Source: Vicugna vicugna (Eukaryota). Taken from it: 64,000 nt of DNA. The number at the start of each line of letters is the position of its first letter. Within the stretch, counting starts at the first letter, position 1. The position numbers were made by a program, and so were the translations under genes. The stretch spans positions 2,294,001 to 2,358,000 of the forward strand of contig MU058000.1 in NCBI GenBank assembly GCA_013265495.1, read 5' to 3'. This document shows, one piece after another, positions 9,691-58,800 of the stretch. The notes beneath the pieces were generated by a model. That model was not told the origin of the DNA. It ran no database searches and worked only from the letters and a program-made list of their open reading frames with translations.

Positions 9691-10159
9691 CAGTAATAAT
9701 GCAGTATTAAATTAGACTAATCATTTTTTAAACACTGTTGATTCTGTTTCAGTTGGATTACAGAGAGTATCCATCAGATAAGGTAATACAGGATTTCATG
9801 AAATTTTTGTCAGTAAGTATGGGAAATGGACCATAAATTCCAATGAAAGTGGTATTATTTTATATAAATCTATAATTCAAAAGAAAAAACCCAAGCATTC
9901 CCTACTTTTTTGTATTTAGATTTATGGGAATGATGATGGTGGCATTTTCGTCAGAGCCCTTGTAAATGGTGAATGGCAGCAAGAAAGAAAGTTTAATGCA
10001 GACTAGTTATTTTCAATTGTGACTATGGGATTTTAATATTTTCATTATTAATGAAAAATTATGTTTTATAGATTTATGTTCATTTTGAAAGTTTACCAGC
10101 TTAAAAGAATTTGACTATTGGTTTCACTACAGAATAACTGAATACAAGCTAATAGACAT

Positions 10160-10515: not shown

Positions 10516-13500
10516 ATATACAGAAAGGCAAAACAGTATATTAATTTAAATCAGAGAATTAGAATATGGAAGACCATTATCCCATGCTTTAAAAAATAAA
10601 CATTCTTTGCTCTTGAAACATGGTCAGAATCATGTCAGTAATTGTATCTGTCCTAGTTCCAGTTAGTCAGTCTTTCTGATTGCTGTGTGCTCTGATGTGA
10701 ATCAACAAGTTTGTGAAGTGTTTGATCTTTATGATAATGAGTATTTTGTCAATTACTGTCAAGCTAGGTTTTTGTTTTTTGCCTCTGGATGAGTGTTCCC
10801 TTTGAGACTGGACAGGGATGCAAATGAAGAACTAGGCAGAAAAGGAGAGATGATTTAAAAAGACAGCTGGGATCCCCAGAAGTGAGTTTGAAAATATAAT
10901 TCTATTTTTGTTCCTGTTTTCTATTTCCTACCTAGAGATTGATCTGTGGTAGTTATGGGAACGGGTCATTTAGTGTGTCTTTTGACAAGGCACTCCAAAC
11001 TCCTCTGTGAGGATTTCTGTGCAAGATATTTTCAATGAAATATCTACTACTGGTAGAATTATTAAGTGTGGATAGAAAGAAACTATGATAGCAGACATGT
11101 TGGCATTTATCTGTTTAATTTTTTTTAGCTTTTCCAACTGCTACAACTGTTATTTGAATAATCATAAAAAGTAAGTAGCAGAAATCTCCAAACATAGAAT
11201 TTAACCTAAGAAAGCCAACTAGCCAATAATTTCTCTATCCAAATTATCAAGCAAAACTAGCCACATTCTTTATAGAGGATCATACAAATGTAAAGATGAA
11301 AATAGGACCTGCGAAAAGGAACCACCTGCATGGCAGAGTAAACGGTCAAGGGAGGAAATTTTTCCAGCAAGGAAATGATATTTTTTCTTTTTCTTTCTAG
11401 GATAGTTGGAACAAATGTACTAGGATCTGGACTTCTCAAGAATGCTTTATTTACTTTTGTATACTTGGTGCCAAGTTCAAACACCTGCCTTATAAATGAT
11501 AATTAACACCAATATTGCGAATGAGATCATAGTACCTATTTCACATGTTTGCTGTGAGGAGTAAATGTGTTATTTTTTGCAGACTTTTCCCATGTGTATT
11601 CCCTGGACCACATATAAATATCAAAATCAAAAATCACAAATTTAAATCCAGATTTAGTGAAATAGAATTTTAGATTGGGTGTAAAGTTTGTTCCTGGCAA
11701 TAAAAAAATTTGATAATTTGTACAAGTTATTTTTAGGCACACTAAACGTTAGCTATAAGGTGGATAGCTTATCAGTTCAATTGATTATCAGTTCAATTGA
11801 TCAGCTTAATATTAAAATATATATTGTCAGTTAATCAAAGCTGTTTATGCTTATGGGAGTGAAGATTGAGTGCCCTTTATAATTTTTACCCAACATGCAC
11901 TTTAATACTCATAAATGGGGAAACCTCTGAAATTTACTGATTCACTTGCCTCAAAAGGAAACTATATCAATTTGGGAAGATGCATTTGCCTAACAGATTT
12001 CCCTGGGAGACTTTTTTTGGTTGGCAACACATGAATTTGAAAGTTGAAGGCATTATTCAACTCTTTAAGTCAACGCGAAGAGTGTTCTGCTATCAAAGAA
12101 GACAAAATTAATTTTGGTTTGTATTTTAATTTGAATTAACTTCATAACCACTCAAGTGCCATTATTCCTCATCTTTCCTTCAACTCTTTCGAGTGATTGC
12201 ATTTCTTTTAGCATAAACTCTGCATTACATTTAATTCTGTAATCTCAGTGGAAGCAAGCAACGTCTTTTCATTAGGCACCTCTCACTGCTCCCGTCAAAT
12301 TCTCCACAGAGATCAAGTCATATAATCATAACAAAAACTAATCAGCCTCCACTTGTGAGGAAGAAAATGTGTCAGGGAAAGTAAATAGAAGCAGTAAATC
12401 AGGAGACAATTGAGAAGGAAAACAGAGCACTGAGGTTACTAAATAATCCAGAAAGAGGTAAGATTGGAGGTACTCACAGAATTAACTTTTGCCACTTTCT
12501 ATGATCACATTCTTTACTGCCTCGATGCTTGGAATACATTCTGCCTTCTAATTAGAGTGAGAAGAGTACATTTTTCTTCCATTTCTCTAAACAAAATTTA
12601 AAGGAAAAGTAATCATTATTCTGCCTTTTCATTCTGTCCTCAGTAATGAATGCCCTAGGAGAGGGAAGACGGAGATTTTGTTTGCCTGCATCTATTCTTT
12701 TTTTCTCTTCCTTTTCAAATTTACCTTTTAACAAGTTTCTTTTATTAAATTAATGATGGGTCTTATTATAGCTATTTAGTATCGTCAAAGGAGTTTTTTT
12801 TTAAATTATATTCAATCTTGTTAAGGCAATTTAAGGCCATTATCTTAAAAACAAAATTTGAGAGGGTGTATTATTAATTGTCCTATTATAGTTGTAATTA
12901 AAGACTTATTATTTAAGCTTATTGCCATTTTCTTTATATCATGCTAATTTATAGGCTTTGAAAATTATCTGGCTCTTTATTGCATTGCAAGGATTAAAAA
13001 AACTAAATTATAGTTAATTTAATTGTCAATTTTTCCCTTAAAGGGCTTTTCATCAAACAAGAAACATTTGTTTTTATATTATCTGAGATATTATTATTAT
13101 TCACACTTTTCTTTTCTCAATAAAAATAAAGCCAAGTTATAAATTAGCATGATAGAAAAATTACAAAATATCTCTTGAAGACAAAAATCATCAGGTCATT
13201 TATTAAATTATCGACTGTATGGCACCAAGATCATGGGGCAAAAGTTTTTGTGATATTGCTGCCCAGTTAGTTATTCAGACACAGCATTCCTACCCCGTAA
13301 TTATAGGTTTTGTTTTTAAACCATTGGCTAAGGGAAGGTTTACAAGTGTGAGACTGGGTGGCTTAATGTACCCCATTACTTTTACTAGAGGAGAGTGGCA
13401 GAAAAGTTTATAGGGAATTTTTATCTTGAGCAAAAGTTTATAGAGAATTTTTATCATAAAATAGATATATTTTATGATGAGAGGACATAGGTTGAAATTT

Positions 13501-14102
13501 ATTACTGCTAATTAACTGACTGAACACTTCGAGTCATTCAACCATTTTTTTCACATGTAGAGTAACATGACTCCTGTAACTGATATCAAAAGGCAAATGT
13601 ATGTGAATATAATCTCATACAGTTCTCATCTCTTGCAATATAATATTTCTATGTAAGGGATTTTTATTATTTAAATATGTATTTCAATTTTCTTTTAAGA
13701 ATCAAGTTAGGTTAGACTTGCCATCGTCCTGGACGATTTCAAAATTTGTACTGATAACCCAAAATTCTGTAAAGTTTCAAAGTCTGGTAAAAAGTACACC
13801 CCAAAAAAGAGAAGTATAGACCAATCACACTTATAAATATTTTGTAAACAATTTAAACTATATACTAGGTAATAAACTACAACAGCATACGACAATAGAA
13901 TATCAAGGATTAAGTCCTTACCAAAGAGATTTTATTTTAGGGATAAAATGGCATTTTATTACTAAGGTGTTTATGAATGCAATCTAGCCTATTAATAGAA
14001 TTTAGAAAAAAAATAATTGTCTCCATAGAGTCAGGGTAGATGTAGAAAAAGCATCATACAAAAAGCAACATTAACATTAATTTATGTTAAAGCTTCAGTA
14101 AC

Positions 14103-14814
14103 ATAGCAGCTCTTAGAATACTATTTACAGTAGCCAAGACCTGGAAGCAAGCTAAATATTCATCAACAGATGAATGGATATATACAATGGAATACTACTC
14201 GGTCATAGAAAGGAATACAATAATTCCATTTGCTTTTTGTGTAATGCAATGATATTTTGTTTCATTATTTTTGTAAAATAAATTATGGGAAAGTGAAACA
14301 ATCATAACTTTTTAATCTATTATGTAATTTTTAAACATTCCTCCAAATACATGCTATAGAGAAATTATAGGGCATTTTGGATGCGTTATAAAAAGGAATA
14401 TGATCATGCCATTTGCAGCAACATGGATGAAACTGGCGATCATCATACTAATTGAAGTAAGCCAAAGAGAGAAAGAAACATGCCATATGATATCACTTAT
14501 ATGTGGAATCTTAAAAAAATGTCACAAATGAACTAATTTACAAAACAGAAACAGACTCACAGACATAAATTACAAACTTATGGTTACCAGAGAGGAAATG
14601 GGGTGGGAAGGGACACATTGGGAGTTTGAGATTTGCAGACAGTAACTACTATACGTAAAATAAACAAAAGAGTCTTACTGTATAGTACAAATAGCACAAG
14701 GAACTATATTAAATACCTTGTAATAGCCTATACTGAAAATAAATATGAAAAAAGATATATATATTTAAGTGAATAACTATGCTCTACCGGAGAAATTAAC
14801 ACATTGTAAATCAA

Positions 14815-14857
<43 letters not shown>

Positions 14858-14880
14858 CTTCAATAAAAAATTTAAAAAGT
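14103..14880 (+). mobile_element. Younger 5'-truncated L1 3' end (cetartiodactyl-type), containing a 155-bp non-L1 insert
   Basis: tatttacagtagccaagacctggaagcaa...gccatttgcagcaacatggatg...acaaaacagaaacagactcacagaca...tagcacaaggaactatatt...cttcaataaaaaa. Confidence 0.9.
14815..14857. repeat. Compound (CT)n(AT)n microsatellite in the L1 tail
   Basis: Run of ct dinucleotides followed directly by a run of at dinucleotides. Confidence 0.95.
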
Positions 14881-15222
14881 AACTGTTAGATAATATCACA
14901 CACACAGGCATATACATAAACAAAAATACAAAAACATCCACACAAGTTCAAGGGCAGAAGCTTGCTTATTCAATGGAAATACTAGAAGCTTCTCTACTAC
15001 AATTCAGCAAGGTAGGGATAGCCACCATCTCCAGGAACATTTAATGGTCTCTAGGAACTATTAGCTAATATAATTAGACAATAGGAAATGATTAAAATTG
15101 TATGAAGTGGAAACACTAAAGGTATCTCTACTTTCAAATGATATAATTATACATTAAGCAATTCCAAAAGAATCAATTTAAAAACTATTAGAAACAGACA
15201 AATAATTTATTAAAGTAGCAGG

Positions 15223-15391: not shown

Positions 15392-16699
15392 GTAGCAGGC
15401 AATAAAGTCAATATACAAAATCAATAGCATTTCTATGTATAAATAAGGGGTTAACATCCTTCAACTCAACAACAAAAAACAACTTGATTAAAAAAATGGG
15501 TATTCTTGAATTTCAGACAGTACTCGGGTATTCTTGAAAGCAGTACTCCAATGAAAATATACTAATGACCAATAAGCATATGAAAAGGTACTCAACTTCA
15601 CTAATCATTACAGAAATGAAAATCAAAAGTGAAATGAGGTACCACTTCACACCCATCAGGATTATCAAAAAGAAAGAAACATAAATATTGGGAAGCACAC
15701 CAGCAATCTATTCAGAGTAAGAAAGAGTGGGCATGTGAGAAATGTATGTTGTTTTCTTTTTGACTCAAAGAAGATATTAGCATTGCTTGATTATGGCTTA
15801 AAATGAAGTATAAAGAGCAGAAGTTTCTCATGCCATGGAGAAATAATTTAAAAAACATACATAGTTTTAAAATGAGTTGGGGCAGATGGGATCAAAGCAC
15901 TGGTAGGTTAAATTTATCCTTGACAATGAGATGCATTTCTTCCTCTAAGATGGGAGAAAAAGAGGTAACAATTTTATACAGATCTACAAAAATGATAGGA
16001 AAGAGGAGACTGGAAAAATTTAATGATATTGCACAGGTTGAAAATACCTCATATCTAATATATTGCTGTACTGGTTTACAGTATTGATTCTGTGTTTTGA
16101 ATCCTTTGTGTTTTTTCACTCAGTCCTTGCCCTATTTTGGTGCTTCAGTATAGTGTTTCCAAATGAGGGGAAGATTTGGAACCCTTGTATTCTTTATTAT
16201 AATGGTGTATGAATCAGTTGAGCTGACCGAAGTAAGGCATTTGAATACTACCAATAGATTTAATAAACAGAAGTATAGTTATTAGTTTACTATACCCATT
16301 TACACTGGACTTCAGATATTCAATCTGATGAAAATATATATTAATTTGCCTTGTAGATGCAAGGGGCAATTTTCATCATGTTTCATAGAAGAATTAGGAC
16401 TTTTTTATTCCTATCTCAGCCAGTTGTCATTTCCTTATGGAAATTTTTCATGACCATATTATTTTATCAAAGCTCCACACTAAATGCTTTAAGAGTTCGA
16501 TATTTGCAGATATTTGCAGATACTATATATAATACAGCTAAACAACAAGTTCCATAATGTCTAGTTCCATAATACTATTCCTCAAAATATCACAGAAAAG
16601 TCTCATTAATAAAATAGCATTACCATAATCGGTTATTGTCTTTGAGACTAAGAGTATTTTGCCATACTCAGCACTGAATCTAAGGATTCACTAAACTTC

Positions 16700-17869: not shown

Positions 17870-18700
17870 GTACAGATTCTTCTTATCTTATAAAAGTGAT
17901 TCTTAATATATTACTTGCATCTAATGTAACCCTGATATGAAAAAGGGCAATGACACTATATGAAAAGAAAATTAAAGACCAATGTCAATTATAAGAGTAG
18001 ATGTAGATATTCTAAGTGAACTATAAACAGGTTAATTGAAAAGTTAAAAATAACTTTCTAAAAATTCTTCCTCCTGAGATTTGCAGATGAGAGCTCTATT
18101 AGGATAACTAAACACATTAATGAAATAAAGAAAAAAAAGAAATAATATTTTTAAGAAGATGCAGATAGTGAATTTGGTAAGTTTCCAATCATTCACACTA
18201 AAGTTTTAAAGCATGTTAGGAGAAATAAACTTCCCTAAACAAGTAAAGTGTACCCACCAAATACCTACACCAAACCTATTTAATGTTATTTATTTAGAAA
18301 TAGTTTCTTTATATGTCAGAATAAATGATAGCATATTTAATAGCCACTACTATTCATCATTATATTGGAGTTTGAAATTTCTTCTCCAGAAAGCATTAAG
18401 CCCAGACATTCAGATTAAAAAAAAAAAAGTAAAGAAAAAAGTGTCCATTATTTATTGAAGATACATGGCGAATTTTGCAAATACAAGATAATTAATGGAC
18501 AAATGTGTATAAATAATAAGAGTTCAGCCAGTATGTTTGGTATAACAATAATATGTAAAATAAATAGAAATAATATGCTTTTTAATACATAATTCATTTT
18601 TGATTAATAGATCATAAAATTATACATATCTTTAAAATAGTACTGTAAATAATTATTGTATCAAAGAAGAAACTTGAATAGAAATGTCCAAGACTGGAGA
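17870..18700 (+). mobile_element. Highly decayed L1 ORF2 remnant
   Basis: aaagaaaattaaagaccaatgtcaattataagagtagatgtag (ENYRPISLMNID-like) followed by further RT-like motifs. Confidence 0.6.
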
Positions 18701-19452: not shown

Positions 19453-20810
19453 TAAATCTCCTCTTAAATAAGTTGAGATATTACTTTTGCATTAAGCAAA
19501 TTCACAAAGAAATCAATCAGTAAACAAAGAAATAGTTCCAGGCCAATGATGGATTCCTTAGCATCCAGGCAATAAATATAAGAATATTCCCTAATAGCAA
19601 ATACAGATTCAGTAAAGAGAATATAGAAAAGAAAAAGCTATTCTGTGCTAACGTGTAACTGTATTTGAATCTCGCACTGTGTCTATCTTGCTTGCTTTAG
19701 TGTCTTCTTGTGGTTGATGCACAGCATTTATTTTTTAAATTAATTAATGTTGTATTATGTAGATTAATGAAACATTGGTGAAGTTTTGAAATAGTAGGGT
19801 TGTTTGAAATTTTGATTTCCAGGTCACTGGAAGATCCCTAATTTGAGAAAAATAAAAAGATAAATATTTATAAATATTTATAAATATTTAAAAATTTATA
19901 AATTACTAAGAATGCGCTTTATGGTAACTTGGTAGCAAAAATATTAACATGATACTCATGTGTGCTAGAAGTGGTTTTCTCTTTTTTTTTTTAGGCCAAG
20001 TCAGTAATGTTTTAAAGTGGTGAACAATTTTCTTTCTCTTTCTTTCTCTTTGTCTCTGTCAGTCTTCTTCCGGATTGTGCATGGGACTATGATGAGATTT
20101 ATCTGAAGACATAACAAATTCAATTTAAAAAGAATGTTAACTTGGGTGGGCCTCAGATAACCATGGGTCTCTGATATGGATGGGAGCTCCTTTTAGAAGC
20201 GATGGATTTAGAAAGCATAGGCAGAAACTACATTTCATTACTTCTTTGAAGGATATTTTAAATGCTAACATTATTTTTATCCATTCCTTTAATACACAGC
20301 GTAGTTGTCCCTCAGGTTTTAAGTAACTTTGTGACTGGGGCCGCTGTATTTCTAGTCATTACCTGATTAGTCTTTAATAGAATGAAAGTTGCCAATGGCA
20401 AGTCATTCTAATATAACATTTTGAGGAAATACTATGTGAAAAATCTGCATATTAAAGCACGAAAAGTCTTTGAAATTCAGCATTAGGTCTTTCTACTTAC
20501 AGAATCTTTCAAGGTAAGAAAACACAATATATTTAAGTGGATTTATACATAGTGGTATAAGGTGACGTACCTCATGCAGACTGATACAAAATTTATTGAA
20601 CGCATGGCCTAGTTACCGGAAAGAATTGCCCTCTAGATTATTTACGCAGGATGAAATGAAGGCTGTGCTAATACTCACACAGCAGCAGGCCTATTTCATT
20701 TATATGTACAGAAATGTTTTAAAAACTTTGAAAGAACACATATTTATCATATTCTCTTATCTAGTTAGATTTTGGAGTAGAAAAAAATTAAAAGATAATT
20801 AGGTAGTCAT

Positions 20811-21405
20811 TGTCGGAGCCAGCCGACAATCGATCAGGTCCAGAAACCTGTGCTGCAGGACTGAGAAAAGGAAAGACGTAACAAAAAGACAGCAAGACAA
20901 GACTAAAAGGTGGGGTTGAGAGGGTCTCACTCTAGCCCGCAAGACGCTAGGTCAAGAGTGGACGACGAGTTTATTTCAGGTGGTTCTTTTATATGATTTT
21001 AACCCATTAGCTCATACATTCCTGCACGTAGGCAATAAAGCCTAACCTCGTGACTCGTATACATTCAACTCAGGTGATACATTCAACTCAGGTGATTGTT
21101 CTCTAAAAGGATCACTGATTTGTGTGCCAATTGTATCTCTCCCTCCGAAGGTCTTTTGTGACTTAATAGCTCAAAGATGTTTCCTCAGGCATTAGCGCAC
21201 CTGGTGCATTCTTTAGTAAAAGAGGTGGCGGGACAGAGATTGTTCTAACTCAATTGACCTTTGAGCCGGGCGCCCCGCACTGTGGGAGTTTAGGCCCAAC
21301 CTTTGTGCTCGGCAGCCTCAATCTCAGAGCCTGGCGCCCTGCACTTTGGGGTTTTACGCCCAAGTTTTGTGCTCGGCAGCCCTCCGTCACGAGCGGCTCC
21401 CCGCA
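20811..21405 (-). mobile_element. Young solo ERV LTR (ERV2/betaretrovirus-like), 595 bp
   Basis: TG...CA termini and a perfect gtcat TSD (20806-20810, 21406-21410). Many CpGs. Minus-strand start TGCGGGGAGCCG; TATA at about 20987-20994 and AATAAA at 20970-20975. Confidence 0.9.
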
Positions 21406-22249
21406 GTCATAAGGAACAGGAAATATGTTTACGATTTATAGCTTTTCTGTAGAACAAGTAAATAAGCTAGTAAGAATGTATTTGGAAAGAGAATCAATGA
21501 TCTGGAAGAAATTTTCTAAGAGAAATTTGGCTGGTTAAGAAAAATACACATAAAATCTGTCTAATATAGAAAAAGAGGAATCATTATCGAGAAAGAAAAT
21601 CCATAGTGGATGGCATTTCAAAAAGAAGCAAATATAACTGAATTAAAAATAGTATGTAGGACCTCAAAGAGGCCTACTTAAGTAAAGAGTGGGTAAAATG
21701 AACCAAATGAACTTGAAATGTTTAAAAAATGGTACATTATATCTAATGGTAAAAATTTACCCCTAAAATTTGATAGAAGAAAGAACGACTATACTTTTTG
21801 AACAGTGTCTATATGCGTACATGTATTTGTGTGTGTGTATGTGTGTATGTGTAGAAAATCCTAATTGCTATTATCTGACTACTATAGCTATTGCAGTAAA
21901 ATTGAGGTTGATTTCAATACAGATTTAAAATTATTGCCAAGAAATAGTGTGATTAGTGGTTTCCAATATTTAGCTCTCTAGGATATGTGATTCTGATGGA
22001 AGAGAGTTCTATACACTTCTGAAATGACAGTAAAATAAATCATGACAAACATAGTAAAACTGGTTGATGACATGGACATTAATACAAATTTGAATATGAA
22101 AATCTATTTATCTAGGAATACACCTAAAACAAAAATTGAGAAGTAGATGAGTGTGAAAGAGGTAAGATCAGAAAATACGGATGAAACCCAAGAATAGGAT
22201 TTAAAAGTTTATGAGCGATTTTAAACAGTAATATAACCAAGTTCACATT

Positions 22250-23137
22250 TTCAGAAGGTCCTCATGAGGCCATGTAGCAAGTTCCCCTCTGGTCCCCAGA
22301 GCTGCATGCTCTAGGGGTGCCCTTCTGTTGTGGTGGGCTGGCTACTGCAGGTGTCTTAGTAGGCAGGGGTGGCCCTTGGACCTTTGGCTGCAGGGTCATG
22401 TCCCCTGTGGTGGCTGGGGACCCACTGGAAGGTGAGACTGGGTCCCTGCACAGTTGTCTTCATGGCCAGGGAGACTTGGGGCTGGTACAAGCCACGGGTA
22501 GGCAGGGCCAGATCCCTGGCGTTGACAGGCTAGAGCAAGGATTCCAAAATGGTGCTTGCTGGTGCCGAAGCTGTCACAGTGGGACAAGCTCTCCTAAATG
22601 GCTGCTGCCAGCATCTCCATCCCCAGGGGTCTCCATCCCCAGGAAGCTCTCCAAGATCAGCTAGTGGGTCTGACCCAGGCTCCTTTTAAACTGCTGCCTT
22701 TGTGTTGAGACTCGTATGAAACTTTGCACACACGCTTTAAGAGCAGATTCTGTGTTTCCTTTAGCCCTCTGGCTCTCCGAACATAAGACCCATAAGATGT
22801 TCTGATGGCTTGTCTTTCTGGTGCATGACCCCTAGGTTGGAGATTCTGATGTGGGGCCCAGAACCCCTGCTCCTCGGGAAGAACTTCTACGATGGTGATA
22901 TTCTACCTGTTTGTAGGTCACCAACCTGTGGGCGTGGATCCTGACTTCATCGCACCATTGCCCCTCCTACCCATTTTGTTGTGGTTCTTCTTTACATCTT
23001 TAGTTGTGGAAAATCTTTTTGGCTTATTTTCACGTCATTCTCATAGATAGTCGCTCTGAAAGAGTTGCACTTTTCATGTGTTCATGGCAGGAGGTGAGTT
23101 CAGTGACTTCCTATCCTGCTGTCTTAGCCCATCTTCT
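22250..23137 (-). mobile_element. Isolated L1 5'UTR fragment (cetartiodactyl-type), antisense
   Basis: Minus strand begins gaagatgggctaagacagcaggataggaagtcactgaactcacctcc, like an L1 5' start; GC-rich body with ttccaaaatggtgcttgc and ctctccaagatcagc motifs. Confidence 0.75.
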
Positions 23138-23984
23138 TGGGAAGTATTTTATATGGTCATAAAAAATGCATTTCTTGTTCAATGATTTTTGCATATATAT
23201 GCTAAATATTTTAGGGGGAAATGCTATCTACCTAGGCTTTTAAGATGAATTTATAAAAATGATTTATGTGTAATGCAATGATTTTTTGATACATTATTTT
23301 TGGAAAATAAATCATGGCAAAGTGAAACAATCATAACTTTTTTTTCTTTTTAATCTATTATATAATTTTTAAAACTCTGCTTTCCTCCAAATACATGCTA
23401 TAAAGAAATTATAGTCCATTTTGGATGTGTTACATTTTTGGTTTTGAAGTTCATCACCATTTTCTGAAGCTTAAGAAGGGATATTTTAAATTGACAAAGT
23501 GAGTCTAAGTGGTTTGAAAAGCTTTATAGAGAAAGATAATATTCCTAAAATGTCACTTTGTCTAGTTGACAGAATTTAATGAGAAATTTTCCATCTTAAG
23601 ACTCAGACACGCGTTTTCAATCAGACCATTATCTTTTTCTGCAATAATCCGTCTTCTAGACTTAAATTAGGGCAAATATGAGAGGCTGACCACCGGGGAA
23701 ACTGAAAAGAAAACTCACTCTCTTTTTTCAATATCACCATAAGTATTCTGAAATATGTATGTTCAGAAACTTGCCTCTGCTTTGTTACAAAGCTAATCAA
23801 TGATATTTAGGTAGATTTTCCTCTCTCTCTCTGAGTGTGACAAATGCAAGTACAATTTTAGTATTTTCATTTAATATAGTGTTTATAGCACAGATTTGAT
23901 TAAACTCACCTGTCCTTATTTACACTCAAATAAAATGTTATTTACGTATTATCTAAAAGCACACGCAAACTTTTACTTTTGGAA

Positions 23985-27163: not shown

Positions 27164-28210
27164 TGTTAGGTAGAATCATGCACTGAGTCTTCTAAAGATG
27201 TCTGTTAGGTTCTAATCCCTGTGCCATGTGAAATGTTCTTTTACATGGCAGAATGGATTCTGCAGAGGTGATTAAGTTAAGGATTTGCGATGGGAAGATC
27301 ATCATGTATTTTGTAGTCATGAAGATTCTTACAAGAGAGAGTCAGGGACAGCCAGACTCAGGGAAGTCTGTAAGTGTGGAGTGTGGGTTCTGGCCGGCAG
27401 AAGTCCCACCAAGACAGAATGAATTACTCAAGACTCTGTGGAAAAGCCAAGAGAGTGAGAGGGAGTGGGGAGCCAACTCCCCGAGCATCTCAAATCTCCC
27501 ATCTTTACTGAGCACAGTCAAAGGAGGAATGCAGGAATTGAGGGAAGGACAGGGTGGGATCACAATGAGTACAAAGGCTTTGTTTGTTGTCGGTGTTTGG
27601 CTCAAGGTCAGAAGAGGCTTTTTGGTGAATCATGTTCAGTTGAGCCTTTCAGCTCATCAGGGCGAATGTGTGAGAATCAGCTGCTTAACAACTTGGACTC
27701 AGGCTGCTGTGCCCATCTTAGGTTGCCCCCCTCAGGGGATCTTTCCCGTCATTGGCTAACCAGCCCTCTCCCCTCTGACTCTGCAGCTTTTTATAAGTTG
27801 TTTACCGTTCCAGCCCAAGGCTGTTCTGGGGATAGAAGACTAACAGCAGGCACACCCAGGGTCATTGCTAAAACCTCAAGGCAGTTACTAAGCACATCTT
27901 CTTTAAGGAGATCCGTGGCTGGGATCTGTTACAATTTGTTAACGCAATCATGGGCTCCCACAGTGAGAACAGGAGCAGAGTTAGGAATGTTACAGCCACA
28001 AGCCAGGTGATGCAGGCAGACTCTCAAAGCTGGAAAAGACAGGGAACAGATTCTCCTTTAGAGCTTCCAGTAGGAAGGTAGCTCTGCTGACACCTTGACT
28101 TTAGCCCTGTAAGACTCATTTCACACTTAGGACTTCTAGAGCTATGAAATAATGAATCTGTGACATTTTAAGCCTGTGGTAATTTGTTACATCAGAAATA
28201 GAAATGTCGA
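27164..28210 (+). mobile_element. MLT1D-like MaLR LTR split by an inserted ERV LTR
   Basis: The 5' half (ttacatggcagaatggattctgcagaggtgattaagttaagga) runs to about 27374. The 3' half resumes at 27963 (aagctggaaaagacagggaacagattctcctttagagcttccag...gtggtaatttgttaca). Confidence 0.85.
27375..27962 (-). mobile_element. Solo ERV LTR (588 bp) nested in the MLT1D-like LTR
   Basis: TG...CA termini; near-TSD gtaag/gtgag; minus-strand TATAAAA near 27790, CCAAT near 27750 and AGTAAA near 27505. Explains the long ORFs 27253-27759 and 27465-28010. Confidence 0.75.
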
Positions 28211-33679: not shown

Positions 33680-34625
33680 TTCTCTGATATTTCTGAATAT
33701 ATTCAGATTGATTGTTGATATGCATTTTTTTTGTTTATTTGTGTGGACTATTTATAAAGTCTATCATTTGTCACATGCAGCCACTGAAATCTTTGCCCAT
33801 TTATCTTAGTGGTTAGTATTTGATTGGACAGAAATATCCTAGTATATCTTGAGTCTTGCTGAGGGCAGATGAGGCAGTTTGCAGCTCTGCCTTAGCTCCC
33901 TTTTTGTTCATGCAGACTCTCAAAGTCAGCCAAGGGTGAGAGATTAGGTCCTTCTAATGGACTTTCTGGGCACGTACACCATCATGCATGTGTGTATGGT
34001 CTTCTAAATTTTCAGAAACATATTAGAGCTTCTCAAAGTCCACTCTGGACACTCTTTCCCCAATTTGTCCTTTTAAGATTTTTGGTGAGTCTCTTCTCAT
34101 CCCAAACTGGTGTTGCTGCTTCAGACTTCCTTGATATTAAACCACTGCCAGTGATTAGTTCAGAAAAAATGCCTTAGATATGAGTCTTTTTCCTGAGGGC
34201 TTGCACTGAGTAATGTCAGTACAGACAACCCTGAGAAGAGTGACATGTCAAATAGTGACTTTTCCCAGGACATGGGACTTTTGAGGTGCTCCAGTCCTTC
34301 TCTGTTCCCTGGAATGACTGCTAAGCAGCTAGCCTGCTGGTTTTTATAGATACTGTGACTACAAGGCTGTTATTTTTCAGGGACACCAAAAACATGTCAA
34401 GAGGAAAATGGAAAGATTTGTGGCAAGGTAAAAATGCCACCAGATTTGCTCTTTTCACTGAGATTTAGCCATTTTTCTTGAATAAACTGTTCTTGGATTA
34501 TTATAAATTTTTGGTTATTTTCCACAGCTTTTAAAAGGTTGATTTGAAAAATTTTGGTCAATGTTCTCAACACTTTGGTGGAGAAGTAGATTTTTGGATT
34601 TCCTTAATATTTTGTTTGACATCTG
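33680..34625 (-). mobile_element. Old L1 5' region (L1MC/L1MD-like), antisense
   Basis: Its reverse complement shares ctaaccactaag...tcagtggctgcatgtgac with the L1 5' region near 46550-46600. Confidence 0.7.
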
Positions 34626-43389: not shown

Positions 43390-43818
43390 AGTGTGGCAGG
43401 GTGAATACACACCCTCCTGCCTCCACCCCAAACAAAAGATATCCATGTCCTAATCCCCAGAACCAGTGGAAAGGTTAACCAGGTGGGCTCCAAGAAATCT
43501 CAAGTATCTTTAAAGGTGGAAGAAGAAGGATGAAGAGGTAAACCAGAGGAGTGAGAGTGTGAACAAGAATTCGCTGTTGCTGGCTTTAAAGATGGAGCAA
43601 GAGGTCTAAGCCTCTTGAAGTTGAAAATGTAAGGGAATGAATTTTTCCCTGGAGCCTCAGAAAGGAATGGAGCCCGGCTGACCTGTGGATTTTAGCTCAG
43701 TGAGACCCATTTCAGACTTCCAAAACTACAGAACTACAAGATAATATACTAGTATTGTTTCAAGTCATCATGTTTATACCAATTTGTTACAGCAGCCAGC
43801 CACAGAAAACCGATACAA
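43390..43818 (+). mobile_element. MLT1D-like MaLR LTR
   Basis: aaagatatccatgtcctaatccccagaacc...ttttagctcagtgagacccatttcagacttc...aatttgttacagcagc. Confidence 0.85.
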
Positions 43819-45720: not shown

Positions 45721-47965
45721 AGACAGATTGTTAAAAAAGAGAGAGAAGAGGCTTTAAAAAACTATCCTTTACTTTTAGACAAAGTTACATATACTGCTAA
45801 ATATATGTTTTTATATTCCCCAATAATATTTGAAATGGAGAATGTCATGCTTTGAGAAATTTGATTGTTTTCTAGAAAAGTGAGTTTATTATAATATCAC
45901 ATAATATTTTCCAGTAATAATGCATCAGAGGTGATTGTTCAGAACCTATAGGGACTAGTTAATAACAAAAGGAAGGCTGGAGAGACATGGTTAACAAAGA
46001 ATAGATGCAGTGTAATAGTGAGAGGCACAGCTCAGTTATCACCATGCTTTCCTCGACCTTGTATATTATAGGCATGGTACTGGTATATTTCCAAATTTTA
46101 TGGAGGTTCTAGAATTCTGGATTTTGAAATATTAGGAGCACATTACAAATAAATAACAGCATTTTATAAGCAAAAATGGTGGTGTAAAGACCTCTGAAAA
46201 TTTAACCCTCCTTTAAAACAATGATTATGGTTTCAACATACAACTTATGGGGAACAGAGGTCAATCCAGAAAAGATGTCATAGAGCCTTTAAGGAGCTCT
46301 GACGTGTTCCTGGGAATCTAGAATGCCATTCACATTTGTGGACCTGTGTAGATGCCCAGGAAAGACCTGGGAAGGCCCTAATGTCTCACTTACAAGTGAT
46401 CTTGAAACTCTGCACAAGCAGGGATTAAAGGCCAGGGAAGAGTGGTAAAAGGCCTTTCTGAGTGTTGAAAGCATGCTATGACATGTATGCAGACACCTCA
46501 TCAAAGATGGAGAGATTTACTGATTTCAGGAATTTAAAGAAATCTTTCTCTAACCACTAAGCTAACCAAGCAGACACCTCAGTAGCCACACATGACAAGG
46601 AATACCTACTCTAAATAATTAGTCCTGAGAAGTTAGTAAAAACAACAACTACAATAAGCAGTGACAAAAGCAAACCCTAGGGATGGGGAAGGAAAAATAG
46701 TAACTGTCTCTGAGGAGGTCATGTTGAAATTACTAGACAAAGAGTTTAATCAACTATTTTAAATAAGTTTAAAGAGCTAAAGGGAAACATGTCTGAAAAA
46801 CTAAAAGAAAGTATCAAAAATATAATAATTAAAATGAAAAATTCACTACAGTGATCAACAGTACATTTGAGTGCGCAGAAGAAAGAAGTAGACTAGAAGA
46901 CATGACAGAGAATATCAATAAAATCAAACTGTGTTTCTTTGTAAAGATCAACAAAATCGGCCAACTGTATCTAGACTGATCAAGAAAAAAATCAGAAAAT
47001 ATTCAAATGGTTAAAATTAAAAAATGCAAGAGGGGCTATTACTACATGTCATATAAATTTAAAAAAAAATTAGGTGAGAACTATGAACAATTATATGCCA
47101 ACAAATTAGCTTTATTAAAAAGGACAAATACCTAGAAAGACACAAACTAGCACACTGACTCAAGAAAAAAATAGAAATCTGAGCAGATTCATAACAAGTA
47201 AAGATGTTACAATTAGTGATTTATGAAAACAAAAACAAAAACAAAATTTTCCACAAAAAAGGCTCTGGAAGAGATAACTTTATTTGTGAATTCTGTTAGA
47301 CATTTAAAGAAGAACTTGCATCAACTTGTCACAGACTATTGAAAAATAGAAAAGGAGAGAATAATTCTTTAGTCATCATAAGAGGCTAGTATTAACCATG
47401 ATACCAAAACATGGCAGACATTAGGATAAAAGAAGCTACAGAACAAAGTCACTTATGAGTATAGATGCAAAACTTTTTGACAAAAAAACTAGCAAATTGA
47501 ATCCAGCTCCATATTAAAAGGATTATAGGCTGTGCCTAAATGGGATTTATTCCAGAAATATAAGTTGGTACAATGTATCATTAAAGTTAAAATAAACAAT
47601 AAAAAACAATAACTGAAGACACTTGACCATCTCAATAGATGCAGAAAACTCATTTGACAAAACCAACATCCTTTTATCAAAAAAACACTCAGCAAAGTAA
47701 GAACAGAAGTTAAATTCTGCTACGTGATAAAGGGCACCAGTGATAAACCCACAGCTAACATTATACTCAGTGATGAAAAACTGAAAACTTTCTCCCTAAG
47801 ATCAAAAATAACACAAGGATGTATACTCTTGTTATTTTTATTCAGCATTGTATTGGTGATTCTAGCCAAGGCAATTAGGGAGGAAAACAAAATAAAAGGC
47901 ATCCAGATGGGAAAGGAAGTAGTAAATTATCTCTTTTCACAGATGTTATAGAGAAAATCCTGAGG

Positions 47966-55829: not shown

Positions 55830-58800
55830 TTAAATTTTTTTTTACTATTCTTGAAGATCTTCATTTTCTGAGGTACATTTATGGCATTGTGTCCACAATG
55901 AAATGATGCTTCAATAACAGGTAAGGGGATATTAATTGAGGGAAATAATATCAGGTTGTTGCTCATCTATTTTATATGAAGACAAAGTAGAGGGTAATGT
56001 TCAATCTATGTGTTTTGCTGTATTTACCATGAAAATAGATTATACCCTAGGAAAAATGAGATAGAAAATGGATATTAGATTGTTCAAATTCAATTTGAGA
56101 GGACAAAAGATGATTCACTTGCGGTGCGGCATTAGCATACACTCCAGACCATGGGTTGGTGTTCCCTGAAACACACCAAAAATAATGAAAAATCAATGAG
56201 CTTTGGTAGATGTTAGCAAACATAAGCTAATAAAAATAATATAATACATTAAGTTTCCTGAATTTTTAGAGGAAATTAATTTTGGTTTAAGTAAGCCATC
56301 TCTATGGAAAGCAGTTATTTTGTCCATCAATCTCTTCCTTCATTCAGCAAACGTTATATAAGGAGAAATTTTTGAGTGTATCAAATAAGTCTCAACATGG
56401 CCAATTATTTAATTTTTAGTTTAATAGGTATCTTTTTAACATTCAAGTGACTGATTCTTAGAAAACTGATTGAATACATATCTCACCATATAATGAGTTC
56501 ATTGTAAATGCATTAGATATTGTGTTTATACTACTTATTGAGGAATTATTTTATTGAGAAAATAATATTAGTAATAATAGCATTGTCGTACGTATCAGTA
56601 ACTGTCATTCTTTTTCTTGCCATTTCATCTGACTGGTTTAAAAAATTTAACTTTTGTATATAAGTTCATATATATGTTTGTACAGTCAGTTATTTTTAAA
56701 ACACATGTGTTTATACAGTTATTTATTAAAAAATATACAGGCAAATGTAGATATGTAAATTATTATATCTGTATTTCTATAATTGTTTCTTTATTCACAT
56801 TCTTATGTAAGTAGCATATTTGTTTGTGTGTCACTGCAGAAATGACACAAACTGGCAATTATAAAGCCAATTTTATTTAAAATCATGATGGTTTTATTTG
56901 CATTGATTACAAGGTGTCTGGAACAATTGCTAACAAGAACAAATCCATAGAAGATGTGAGAATATCAATATGCTTCTAAGTCACAAATAATGAAGATGTA
57001 TATCTAAGGTAATTTGAGTTTCTGAAAATTATTCCTTGGCTCTCAGAGTGAATGGAGCTACAGTAAAATCAGTTTTGGTTGATTAGATAGAAATGACAAT
57101 ATCAAGTGGAAAGAGTAGAAAGTAAGTTGTAAGCTTCATTTTCAATACACACTGTACTTTACAATGATATAAATACGCTGTATCTTGCAATTATATGTAT
57201 TATGGAAGTCATGGTAATTTTTCCTGCATTGTTTTTTCTTTACTAAACTGCCACATAGCTGAGTTGTCAATATGATATTCTTGGAGTAAGTAAAATGGAA
57301 CCTTAAGAAAATGCTTAGATATCTCAAACAACAACAAAATGAAAAATTCTTAGCTAATTAAAGACGGGGGGAGAGGTATGAAGACTGATGTGTTCAGAAT
57401 CAGGGACTCAGTTTGATGTCCTTATTTCCTGACTCAGTGATTAGCAACCACAGGCAATGACATTCATGCGCAGAAACAGACTAAGACAGCTGATGTTATA
57501 TTATCCTCCAATTACGGTAGTATCTCTTGATTGTAAAATACCTTGTTAAAAAGTATATAGCAACCATTTTAGTTATTAATTCCCTGTTATTTCTTACCCC
57601 TGATTTGATTGTAATGAATATGTTTAAAGTTGATACTTGTGTAGTTGTAAGGGTTAATATTTTTAAAAAGTTAACTTTTAACAAACTCTTCTGACATACT
57701 CTTAATTTGAGAATATATTGAAATATAATATTCAGATATATAAACCATATATTTGCACATTTCCACCCATCTATAAAACTGACATTTACAGTTCAGAACT
57801 TTCTCAAGGAGTAATTAGGTTAAGTTATTTTACAGTTTTACCAGAACTCGAATTCATCTTCTAGAAACATAATTTTTAAATGTCTTGTAAAAATTCATAT
57901 TAAATTGCCATCAGGAAATCACTTTGGACTATTACAAACTCTGCTCTCATCTAAATTACCCTTACCTGTCTTATTTTTTTGTTAAAAGATCCTATTAGTG
58001 TAAAATCCTTTATAGGAAACTAGACATGAATTAAAAATTGTTTTCTTTATTCTGTATTTGAAACTTTTTACAGGTGATATAATTTCCTGCAAACTGAGTT
58101 TTAAATCAGATTACCTTAAGGGAAAGTGCTGAATGTACATAGGGCGCTGTCTCTGTTTAGACATTTACTGAATCCATTATAAGGGGGTGCTGGAAATGGG
58201 CAGTGAAGAATAGGTTTAATTTAAGAGTGTCGGTTTAGAACAAGTCTGTCTGAGATACTATATATACAATATACATAAAGAAATTTTGTATTTGCAATAT
58301 TATAGGAGAAAAAATTCTGTGCTCAAACTTTCTGTGATGAATTGAAAGTAAGTGGGGAATGAGAAAGAGTAACATTTATTAAACCCTGCTATGAACCCGA
58401 TAATGGTGGGGGGAGGATGAAATCTATAAGCTATATTGTATCACTTTTTCTTTAGTGGGCTTTCATTGAATTTTTTTTTCTTTCAAAGATTGATTTATTT
58501 AAAATTATTTATATGTAAGTATCTTACTAAAGAGCATACTAAGTATATTACTAGTATAAACTACTAAGAAAAGTGCCTTTTCTCACACAGTTCTATTATG
58601 TTGGTAGCTAAAAGTTTTGCTTGAATTAGCTAAATTATCTTTGTTCAGCTGGTAATGATTACATCTGAAATTTAAAGAGAATTTGTTATATTTTATTCAT
58701 AATATTCTTTGCTATGCAAACTGTCAGATGTTGAAGATCTACAAACACTCTTTGTTCCCTATTTTTATGTACATAATGTACTACCTGTGACCAGGAGTAA

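Follow-up and report, generated by a model that had tools for sequence, protein, structure and literature searches.

A 155-bp copy of DNA lying 8.9 kb away interrupts an L1 3′ end between two copies of a 29-bp host segment

How does a stretch of foreign DNA come to lie within a retrotransposon, copied from a site about 9 kb away and bracketed by two copies of the same piece of its host, and was it captured when the retrotransposon integrated or later? These questions are raised by a 5′-truncated L1 element in a window of mammalian-type DNA with a GC content of 28–41%; the window is the whole stretch of 64,000 nucleotides that was analysed. By their appearance, the 3′ ends of its L1s may point to a cetartiodactyl. 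The coordinates of the features are given in Table 1.

Table 1. Features of the interrupted L1, its insert and the donor (positions in the window)
Feature	Position	Strand	Remarks
5′-truncated L1	~14103 to 14877	+	interrupted at 14233
L1 left piece, end of ORF2	14103–14233	+	BLASTN to 17/20 L1 loci; left edge placed from the reading frame
L1 right piece	14388–14877	+	last 41 ORF2 codons, 3′ UTR, AATAAA at 14862–14867, short A-rich tail; BLASTN to 20/20 loci
Left copy of the 29-bp host duplication	14205–14233	+	24/29 identical to 14388–14416
Right copy of the 29-bp host duplication	14388–14416	+	begins with an A-rich run
Acceptor, 155-bp templated insert	14234–14388	+	GC content 24%; neither added tail nor terminal repeat
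Donor, 170 bp of AT-rich DNA	23263–23432	+	8,874 bp downstream of the acceptor; no flanking repeat
Right junction zone, possible eroded microhomology	14385–14390	+	5/6 to donor, 5/6 to left L1; donor versus left L1 4/6
Candidate 6-nt target-site duplication of the whole L1, AGTAAC (weak)	14097–14102, partner 14878–14883	+	read from the sequence

When the whole window was compared with itself by BLASTN, 14231–14388 aligned with 23260–23432 on the same strand over 173 columns (83.2% identity, E=2e-47). This match is the top of nine non-self matches at E≤1e-3, with the runner-up at E=1.7e-10, and the self-comparison that the first-pass annotation had proposed thus returned insert and donor as the only such pair in the window. 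That annotation had counted about a dozen substitutions and two indels by hand. A global alignment of 14234–14388 with 23263–23432 gives 13 substitutions in 155 columns, of which 4 are transitions and 9 transversions. On the insert side, the alignment also has two gaps, 9 and 6 bp long. The substitutions correspond to a divergence of 4.2% per copy (13/155; 95% CI 2.3–7.0). The differences are rich in transversions (9/13; P=0.008–0.03 if 60–67% transitions are expected), an excess that may stem from the AT-rich surroundings or from error-prone synthesis when the segment was captured. With permissive scoring within the window, the donor scored 159 bits and the next match 35.4 bits, a value attained by 18 of 200 shuffled inserts (shuffle maximum 48.3). 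No third copy of the insert in the 64-kb window was supported by this search and its shuffles, and the stretch 57993–58067, tried as such a copy, was discarded as chance by the shuffle control.

The L1 ORF2 is broken by the insert and the donor has no flanking repeat; 14234–14388 is therefore the derived copy. The limits of the match coincide with the insert's own junctions, as for a cut-out of the donor region. We looked for a terminal inverted repeat in the insert and for a repeat flanking the donor and found neither, in agreement with the earlier description of an insert without poly(A) or terminal repeats and of a donor without target-site duplication. The longest A run in the insert is four. 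Its 5′ end consists of five T, where the donor reads TTTAT, and is therefore, apart from one substitution, templated sequence and no added tail. A poly(A) of 10–40 nt with an upstream signal is absent on both strands, words of the AATAAA type being found in the middle of the insert, and Rfam gave no matches in the window. An assembly artefact is unlikely, since a mis-join predicts near-identical copies and not copies separated by 13 substitutions and two gaps. A comparison of sequencing runs with 11000–14400 yielded 24 rows, 18 of them with at least 0.90 of the words (organisms A–D); none of the rows listed was from RNA, and two with small shares (0.19 and 0.15) carry no weight. The insert makes up less than 5% of this stretch, so these figures are uninformative about the junctions.

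On the side of the host, the 24/29 identity between the two 29-bp copies was reached by none of 20,000 shuffles, which bears out the annotated resumption of the L1 by repetition of its previous 29 bp. A repeat search extends the duplication to 32 nt (14202–14233 and 14385–14416, spacing 183). In BLASTN comparisons with three relatives (L001, L016 and L020), the L1 pieces on either side of the insert have exactly 29 bp in common, and the two copies are therefore duplicated host sequence and not a chance likeness. Two separate L1 insertions, considered as an alternative, are ruled out by this exact overlap together with the rare changes common to both pieces. The right piece matches residues 1235–1274 of 1275 of a LINE-1 ORF2p in PDB over 14388–14510 (E=0.006), and this match, together with the BLASTN matches to the L1 loci, identifies the element as an L1; no Pfam families were found in the two short ORF2 pieces. 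In the alignment, the left piece carries an 18-bp deletion relative to the relatives. The insert, the donor, their orientation, the doubled host segment and the direction of copying are established.

Several smaller observations concern the L1 and its flanks. The candidate target-site duplication of the whole element is weakened by the frequency of matches of 6–12 nt in control windows (127/200). Near the 5′ end of the L1, nine bases (14112–14120) seem to be absent from the relatives, whose BLAST matches begin at 14113–14127; the reverse complement of these bases was found once, at 18008, which is explicable by chance. From the look of its flanks, the L1 was also considered to be nested in the ORF2 of an older L1, for which in-window searches gave no confirmation. 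At ~16495–16560 lies a scrap of a second L1 3′ UTR, which has a 12-nt word in common with the host L1 and an 11-bp tandem repeat of that word.

The right junction was only partly as annotated: the duplication stood, but the position of this junction is ambiguous over about 14385–14390, so the duplication measures 29–32 bp. The microhomology seen there has a chance probability of about 0.055, for a window picked after the fact, and at the left junction two of three positions match (chance 0.13). Both junctions would fit, weakly and short of proof, short microhomologies eroded by age. The A-rich start of the right 29-bp copy would suit a nick by the L1 endonuclease, yet such runs are also common in L1 DNA.

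For comparison with other elements we used 20 L1 loci, confirmed in 1 of 315 candidate stretches in genome contigs and in 19 of 428 in metagenome contigs; among 138 candidate stretches in viral contigs none was confirmed. Eight of the loci are near-duplicates (L008–L014 of L007, and L015 of L004) and were left out of the dating set, which consists of 12 non-redundant loci. On the protein level, 127 L1 proteins were used, made up of 8 hits and the best 120 of 6,217 hits (one common to both), a subset chosen for likeness to P0002. The insert was found in none of the 20 loci, the best match covering 20 bp in reverse orientation (E=0.009), and the doubled motif was found neither in the 20 loci nor in the 127 proteins (8 plus the best 120 of 6,217 hits). 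The annotated foreignness of the insert to the L1 family is in keeping with these results. The sampled relatives are uninterrupted at the insert site (20 loci), and none is established as belonging to the same subfamily. A word in the downstream 3′ UTR of this L1 occurs in no sampled relative, and the true source or exact subfamily is therefore not among the samples. One of the relatives, L001, is a 937-bp contig (coverage 0.7) of a bacterial genome assembly; the mammalian L1 3′ end on it is most likely a contamination.

Capture at integration predicts that the distance of the L1 from its source is about the same as the value between insert and donor. The coding part of the L1 outside the duplication was compared with the majority of the 12 non-redundant relatives, from which it differs by 5–17% depending on the filter. 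In three of five measures the divergence of the L1 exceeds the per-copy value of insert and donor about three- to fourfold: it departs at 22 of 157 columns conserved in at least 75% of the relatives (p=0.0003) and at 11 of 95 non-synonymous sites in conserved codons (p=0.012), and over all columns it is 17% off, versus 3–4% for the two youngest relatives. Two strict filters show no age gap, with 5/91 for columns conserved in at least 90% of the relatives (p=0.57) and 13/187 for changes found in no relative (p=0.21). The first-pass annotation had proposed that similar ages would favour capture during integration. This comparison came out divided, with the L1 older by three measures and no gap by the two strict ones. 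The strict filters favour slow sites, under which old relatives fall from 18% to 12% and this L1 further, to 6%. The pN/pS of the L1 versus its relatives is about 0.4, and part of the L1 distance is therefore subfamily difference.

The two 29-bp copies offer a second view on the timing. Each differs from the family majority at 5 of 29 positions, and is thus about as far from it as the rest of the L1. Positions 8, 13 and 14 are off the majority in both copies, which are identical at 8 and 13 (P=0.024); without position 13, a change that is also present in 2 of 11 DNA relatives, P becomes 0.086. Among 121 L1 proteins, from the subset with the best 120 of 6,217 hits, the residue common to both copies at codon 3 occurs in four and the residues of the two copies at codon 5 in none. 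At codon 5, one earlier CpG state that decayed on opposite strands would explain both residues. If the source element did not already carry these shared changes, they would favour a duplication in an L1 that was already mutating. The two copies differ from each other by 8.6% per copy (CI 2.9–17.9), which is compatible with either age. On the whole, these comparisons lean towards a capture later than L1 integration, not firmly. Templated capture with re-copying of 29 bp, as first annotated, is upheld by the anatomy of the locus; of the two times offered with it, integration or later repair, the second is the one leaned towards.

We consider it fairly probable that one repair or replication event in the germline, long after integration of the L1, gave rise to the locus. 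A DNA end inside the dead L1 would have moved to a DNA template about 9 kb downstream, on this chromosome or on its sister or homologue, and about 170 bp of the donor would have been copied. The end would then have rejoined the L1 29–32 bp behind its exit point, so that this L1 stretch was copied twice, and the copies of insert and donor would have decayed neutrally since. Such an event may have proceeded by synthesis-dependent strand annealing or by microhomology-mediated template switching, two routes that the sequence cannot separate. From the data above we infer the timing after integration, the DNA template and the polymerase route.

An unlikely alternative is that the insert was captured while the L1 integrated. 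The cDNA would have left the L1 RNA, copied DNA looped in from 9 kb off, re-primed 29 nt back and run for about 130 nt up to the truncation. The position of the insert, just 131 bp away from the 5′ truncation, suits such a course of events, as does the 18-bp deletion in the left piece. In addition, the age gap is gone under the strict filters, and the distance of the 29-bp copies from the family majority is close to that of the remaining L1. There is also a precedent: templated insertions were reported in 22 of about 3,600 somatic solo L1s in tumours, with templates of less than 250 bp (bioRxiv 10.1101/2024.08.27.596794). As in those cases, a non-L1 template of less than 250 bp is built into an L1 here. 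However, the templates described there typically lie at most 15 bp from the site, whereas the present donor is 8.9 kb away from the insert and 8.4 kb beyond the L1 3′ end. Moreover, in the somatic cases the capture is as old as the L1, while here it looks younger: the L1 is three to four times more diverged than insert and donor in three of five measures, and the changes common to both 29-bp copies are rare or absent in the 121 relatives drawn from the subset with the best 120 of 6,217 hits.

The DNA around the donor bears on a further possibility, in which the template was RNA. A GC-rich piece on the minus strand (~22270–23130) resembles an L1 5′ UTR and stops ~130 bp short of the donor; an L1 fragment consisting of the 5′ part only, as this would be, is unusual. 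Between acceptor and donor lies a solo LTR-like element of 597 bp (20811–21407), which is flanked by a 5-bp repeat, GTCAT, and contains a direct repeat of 55 bp (21263–21317 and 21327–21381). Two very short candidate exons were seen on the + strand, 20503–20513 (11 nt, with good acceptor and donor sites) and, by eye, ~9762–9791 (~30 nt); no gene could be built from them. Crude splice-site scans of the window yielded no convincing exon chain or host gene. Elsewhere in the window, 28018–28128 / 43609–43719 and 33936–34038 / 46287–46389 (inverted) form weak pairs of 68–71% identity, which are probably members of old repeat families.

In this second alternative, which we regard as quite improbable, ORF2p would have cut the old L1 at an A-rich site and turned a fragment of a nascent + strand transcript through the donor into cDNA; the insert would be a tailless retrocopy and the 29 bp a true target-site duplication. 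The A-rich start of the right copy directly follows the 3′ end of the insert, which is the geometry needed by a + strand RNA. The putative neighbouring minus-strand L1 has its apparent 5′ end ~130 bp from the donor, and its antisense promoter could transcribe the donor. A diffusing RNA is not expected to land 9 kb from its source. A transcript still tethered while nascent, possibly started from this antisense promoter, could have served as template 9 kb away, with an equally low probability. On the other hand, transcripts that run across the donor are not known here, nor did the splice-site scans give a convincing host gene. The donor continues with T and not A past the junction, so that priming at a canonical nick would have only 1–2 nt of pairing.

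Published systems can be set beside an RNA template as well. Experimental templated insertions can derive from RNA (PMC5110952), and the orientation of L1-RNA chimeras is treated in PMC13174262. In the tailless class as described in PMC5322556, retropseudogenes were screened for with duplications of 8–35 nt; they have no tail, 3′ complementarity of 2–18 nt and a TT/WAAAAWW target. The present insert resembles this class in its 29-nt duplication and in having no tail; the A-rich start of the right copy fits the target and the 3′ complementarity in part, with the position of the junction being ambiguous. Against this, L1 duplications are reported to peak at 14–16 bp (PMC2912911). The TSIPs described in PMC5110952 have inserts of similar size, and they share with the tailless class and with this locus a flanking duplication (class 1) or the missing tail (class 2). 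However, class 1 as defined there has a poly(A) of 10–40 nt and a signal 10–30 nt before the end, both of which are missing here, so the locus is not class 1. Class 2 is described as being without a duplication, unlike this locus, and the donors of TSIs are reported to be distant, whereas here the donor is local. As a last alternative, the segment would belong to a small family of dispersed repeats, one member of which entered the L1 and made a 29-bp target-site duplication, another lying nearby by chance. This is very improbable, as there is no Rfam match, no terminal repeat, no tail, no repeat at the donor flanks and no third copy in the 64 kb, and the match is limited to the insert's own junctions.

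The favoured repair event has a known counterpart in mammalian genomes. Pace, Sen, Batzer and Feschotte (2009) sought repair-mediated duplications (RDs) via interrupted TEs (PMC2671141), and the account given there also cites the 'doublets' of Thomas et al. They report 1,136 such events in human, 824 of which have a donor within 5 kb (mean 162 bp) and are confidently classed as RDs, together with 202 in cow and 192 in dog, and a median size of 147 bp; 58 human intrachromosomal cases with a donor beyond 5 kb were not confidently classed. The junction signatures that they describe are microhomology of 2–9 nt, filler, deletion and host duplication of 4–21 nt, the last being present in 6 of 39 proximal RDs examined.

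The present locus resembles these RDs, as defined in that study, in most respects. RDs require the same TE in the same orientation on either side of an insert of at least 50 bp, and here L1 ORF2 flanks 155 bp on the + strand, a length close to the published median and mean of 147–162 bp. The TE pieces must lie within 30 bp of each other on TE coordinates; the two L1 pieces overlap by 29 bp in L001, L016 and L020. A donor must cover at least 80% of the query with at least 50% identity, lie more than 50 bp off and have flanks that are not duplicated; here the whole insert matches with 83% identity and its flanks do not, the query being the insert alone, without the 100-bp flanks used by those authors. 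RDs have one donor on the same chromosome, as does this locus, with the single donor checked within 64 kb. They have no added poly(A/T), and the five templated T of the present insert formally reach the 5-nt threshold. Two differences were found: at 8.9 kb, the distance of the donor exceeds their ad hoc cut-off of 5 kb, and the host duplication of 29–32 bp is longer than the published 4–21 nt. On those entry criteria that are testable in the window the locus behaves like an RD and belongs to the wider single-donor set, not to the proximal 824.

The locus is also a cycle of templated insertion with a single template. In the cycles described by PCAWG (PMC7025897), the path comes back to the host, part of which is replicated a second time; likewise, the 29-bp host segment is doubled and the template is present twice here. 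The published cycles are somatic and typically link different chromosomes, whereas the present event is old and inherited and used one local template of 170 bp.

The locus is a real but ordinary scar, of a class that is already catalogued by the hundreds in mammal genomes. It is old, lies in a dead L1 and is probably neutral, with no sign of function. RDs are reported at 0.18–0.26 per Mb of TE DNA in non-primate mammals (PMC2671141), and we estimate hundreds of such events per genome, or about one in 150–200 windows of this size if a window holds 25–30 kb of TE. As a presence/absence marker, the insert could be used between related species. Its value is that of a clean example from the poorly classified tail of RDs, with a donor beyond 5 kb and a long host duplication, a tail in which DNA-templated repair and L1-driven RNA capture are not yet separated in the literature cited here. 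If the template was RNA after all, those catalogued RDs in which a long duplication at an endonuclease-like site goes together with a donor more than 5 kb away would be cases of cis-local tailless retrotransposition.
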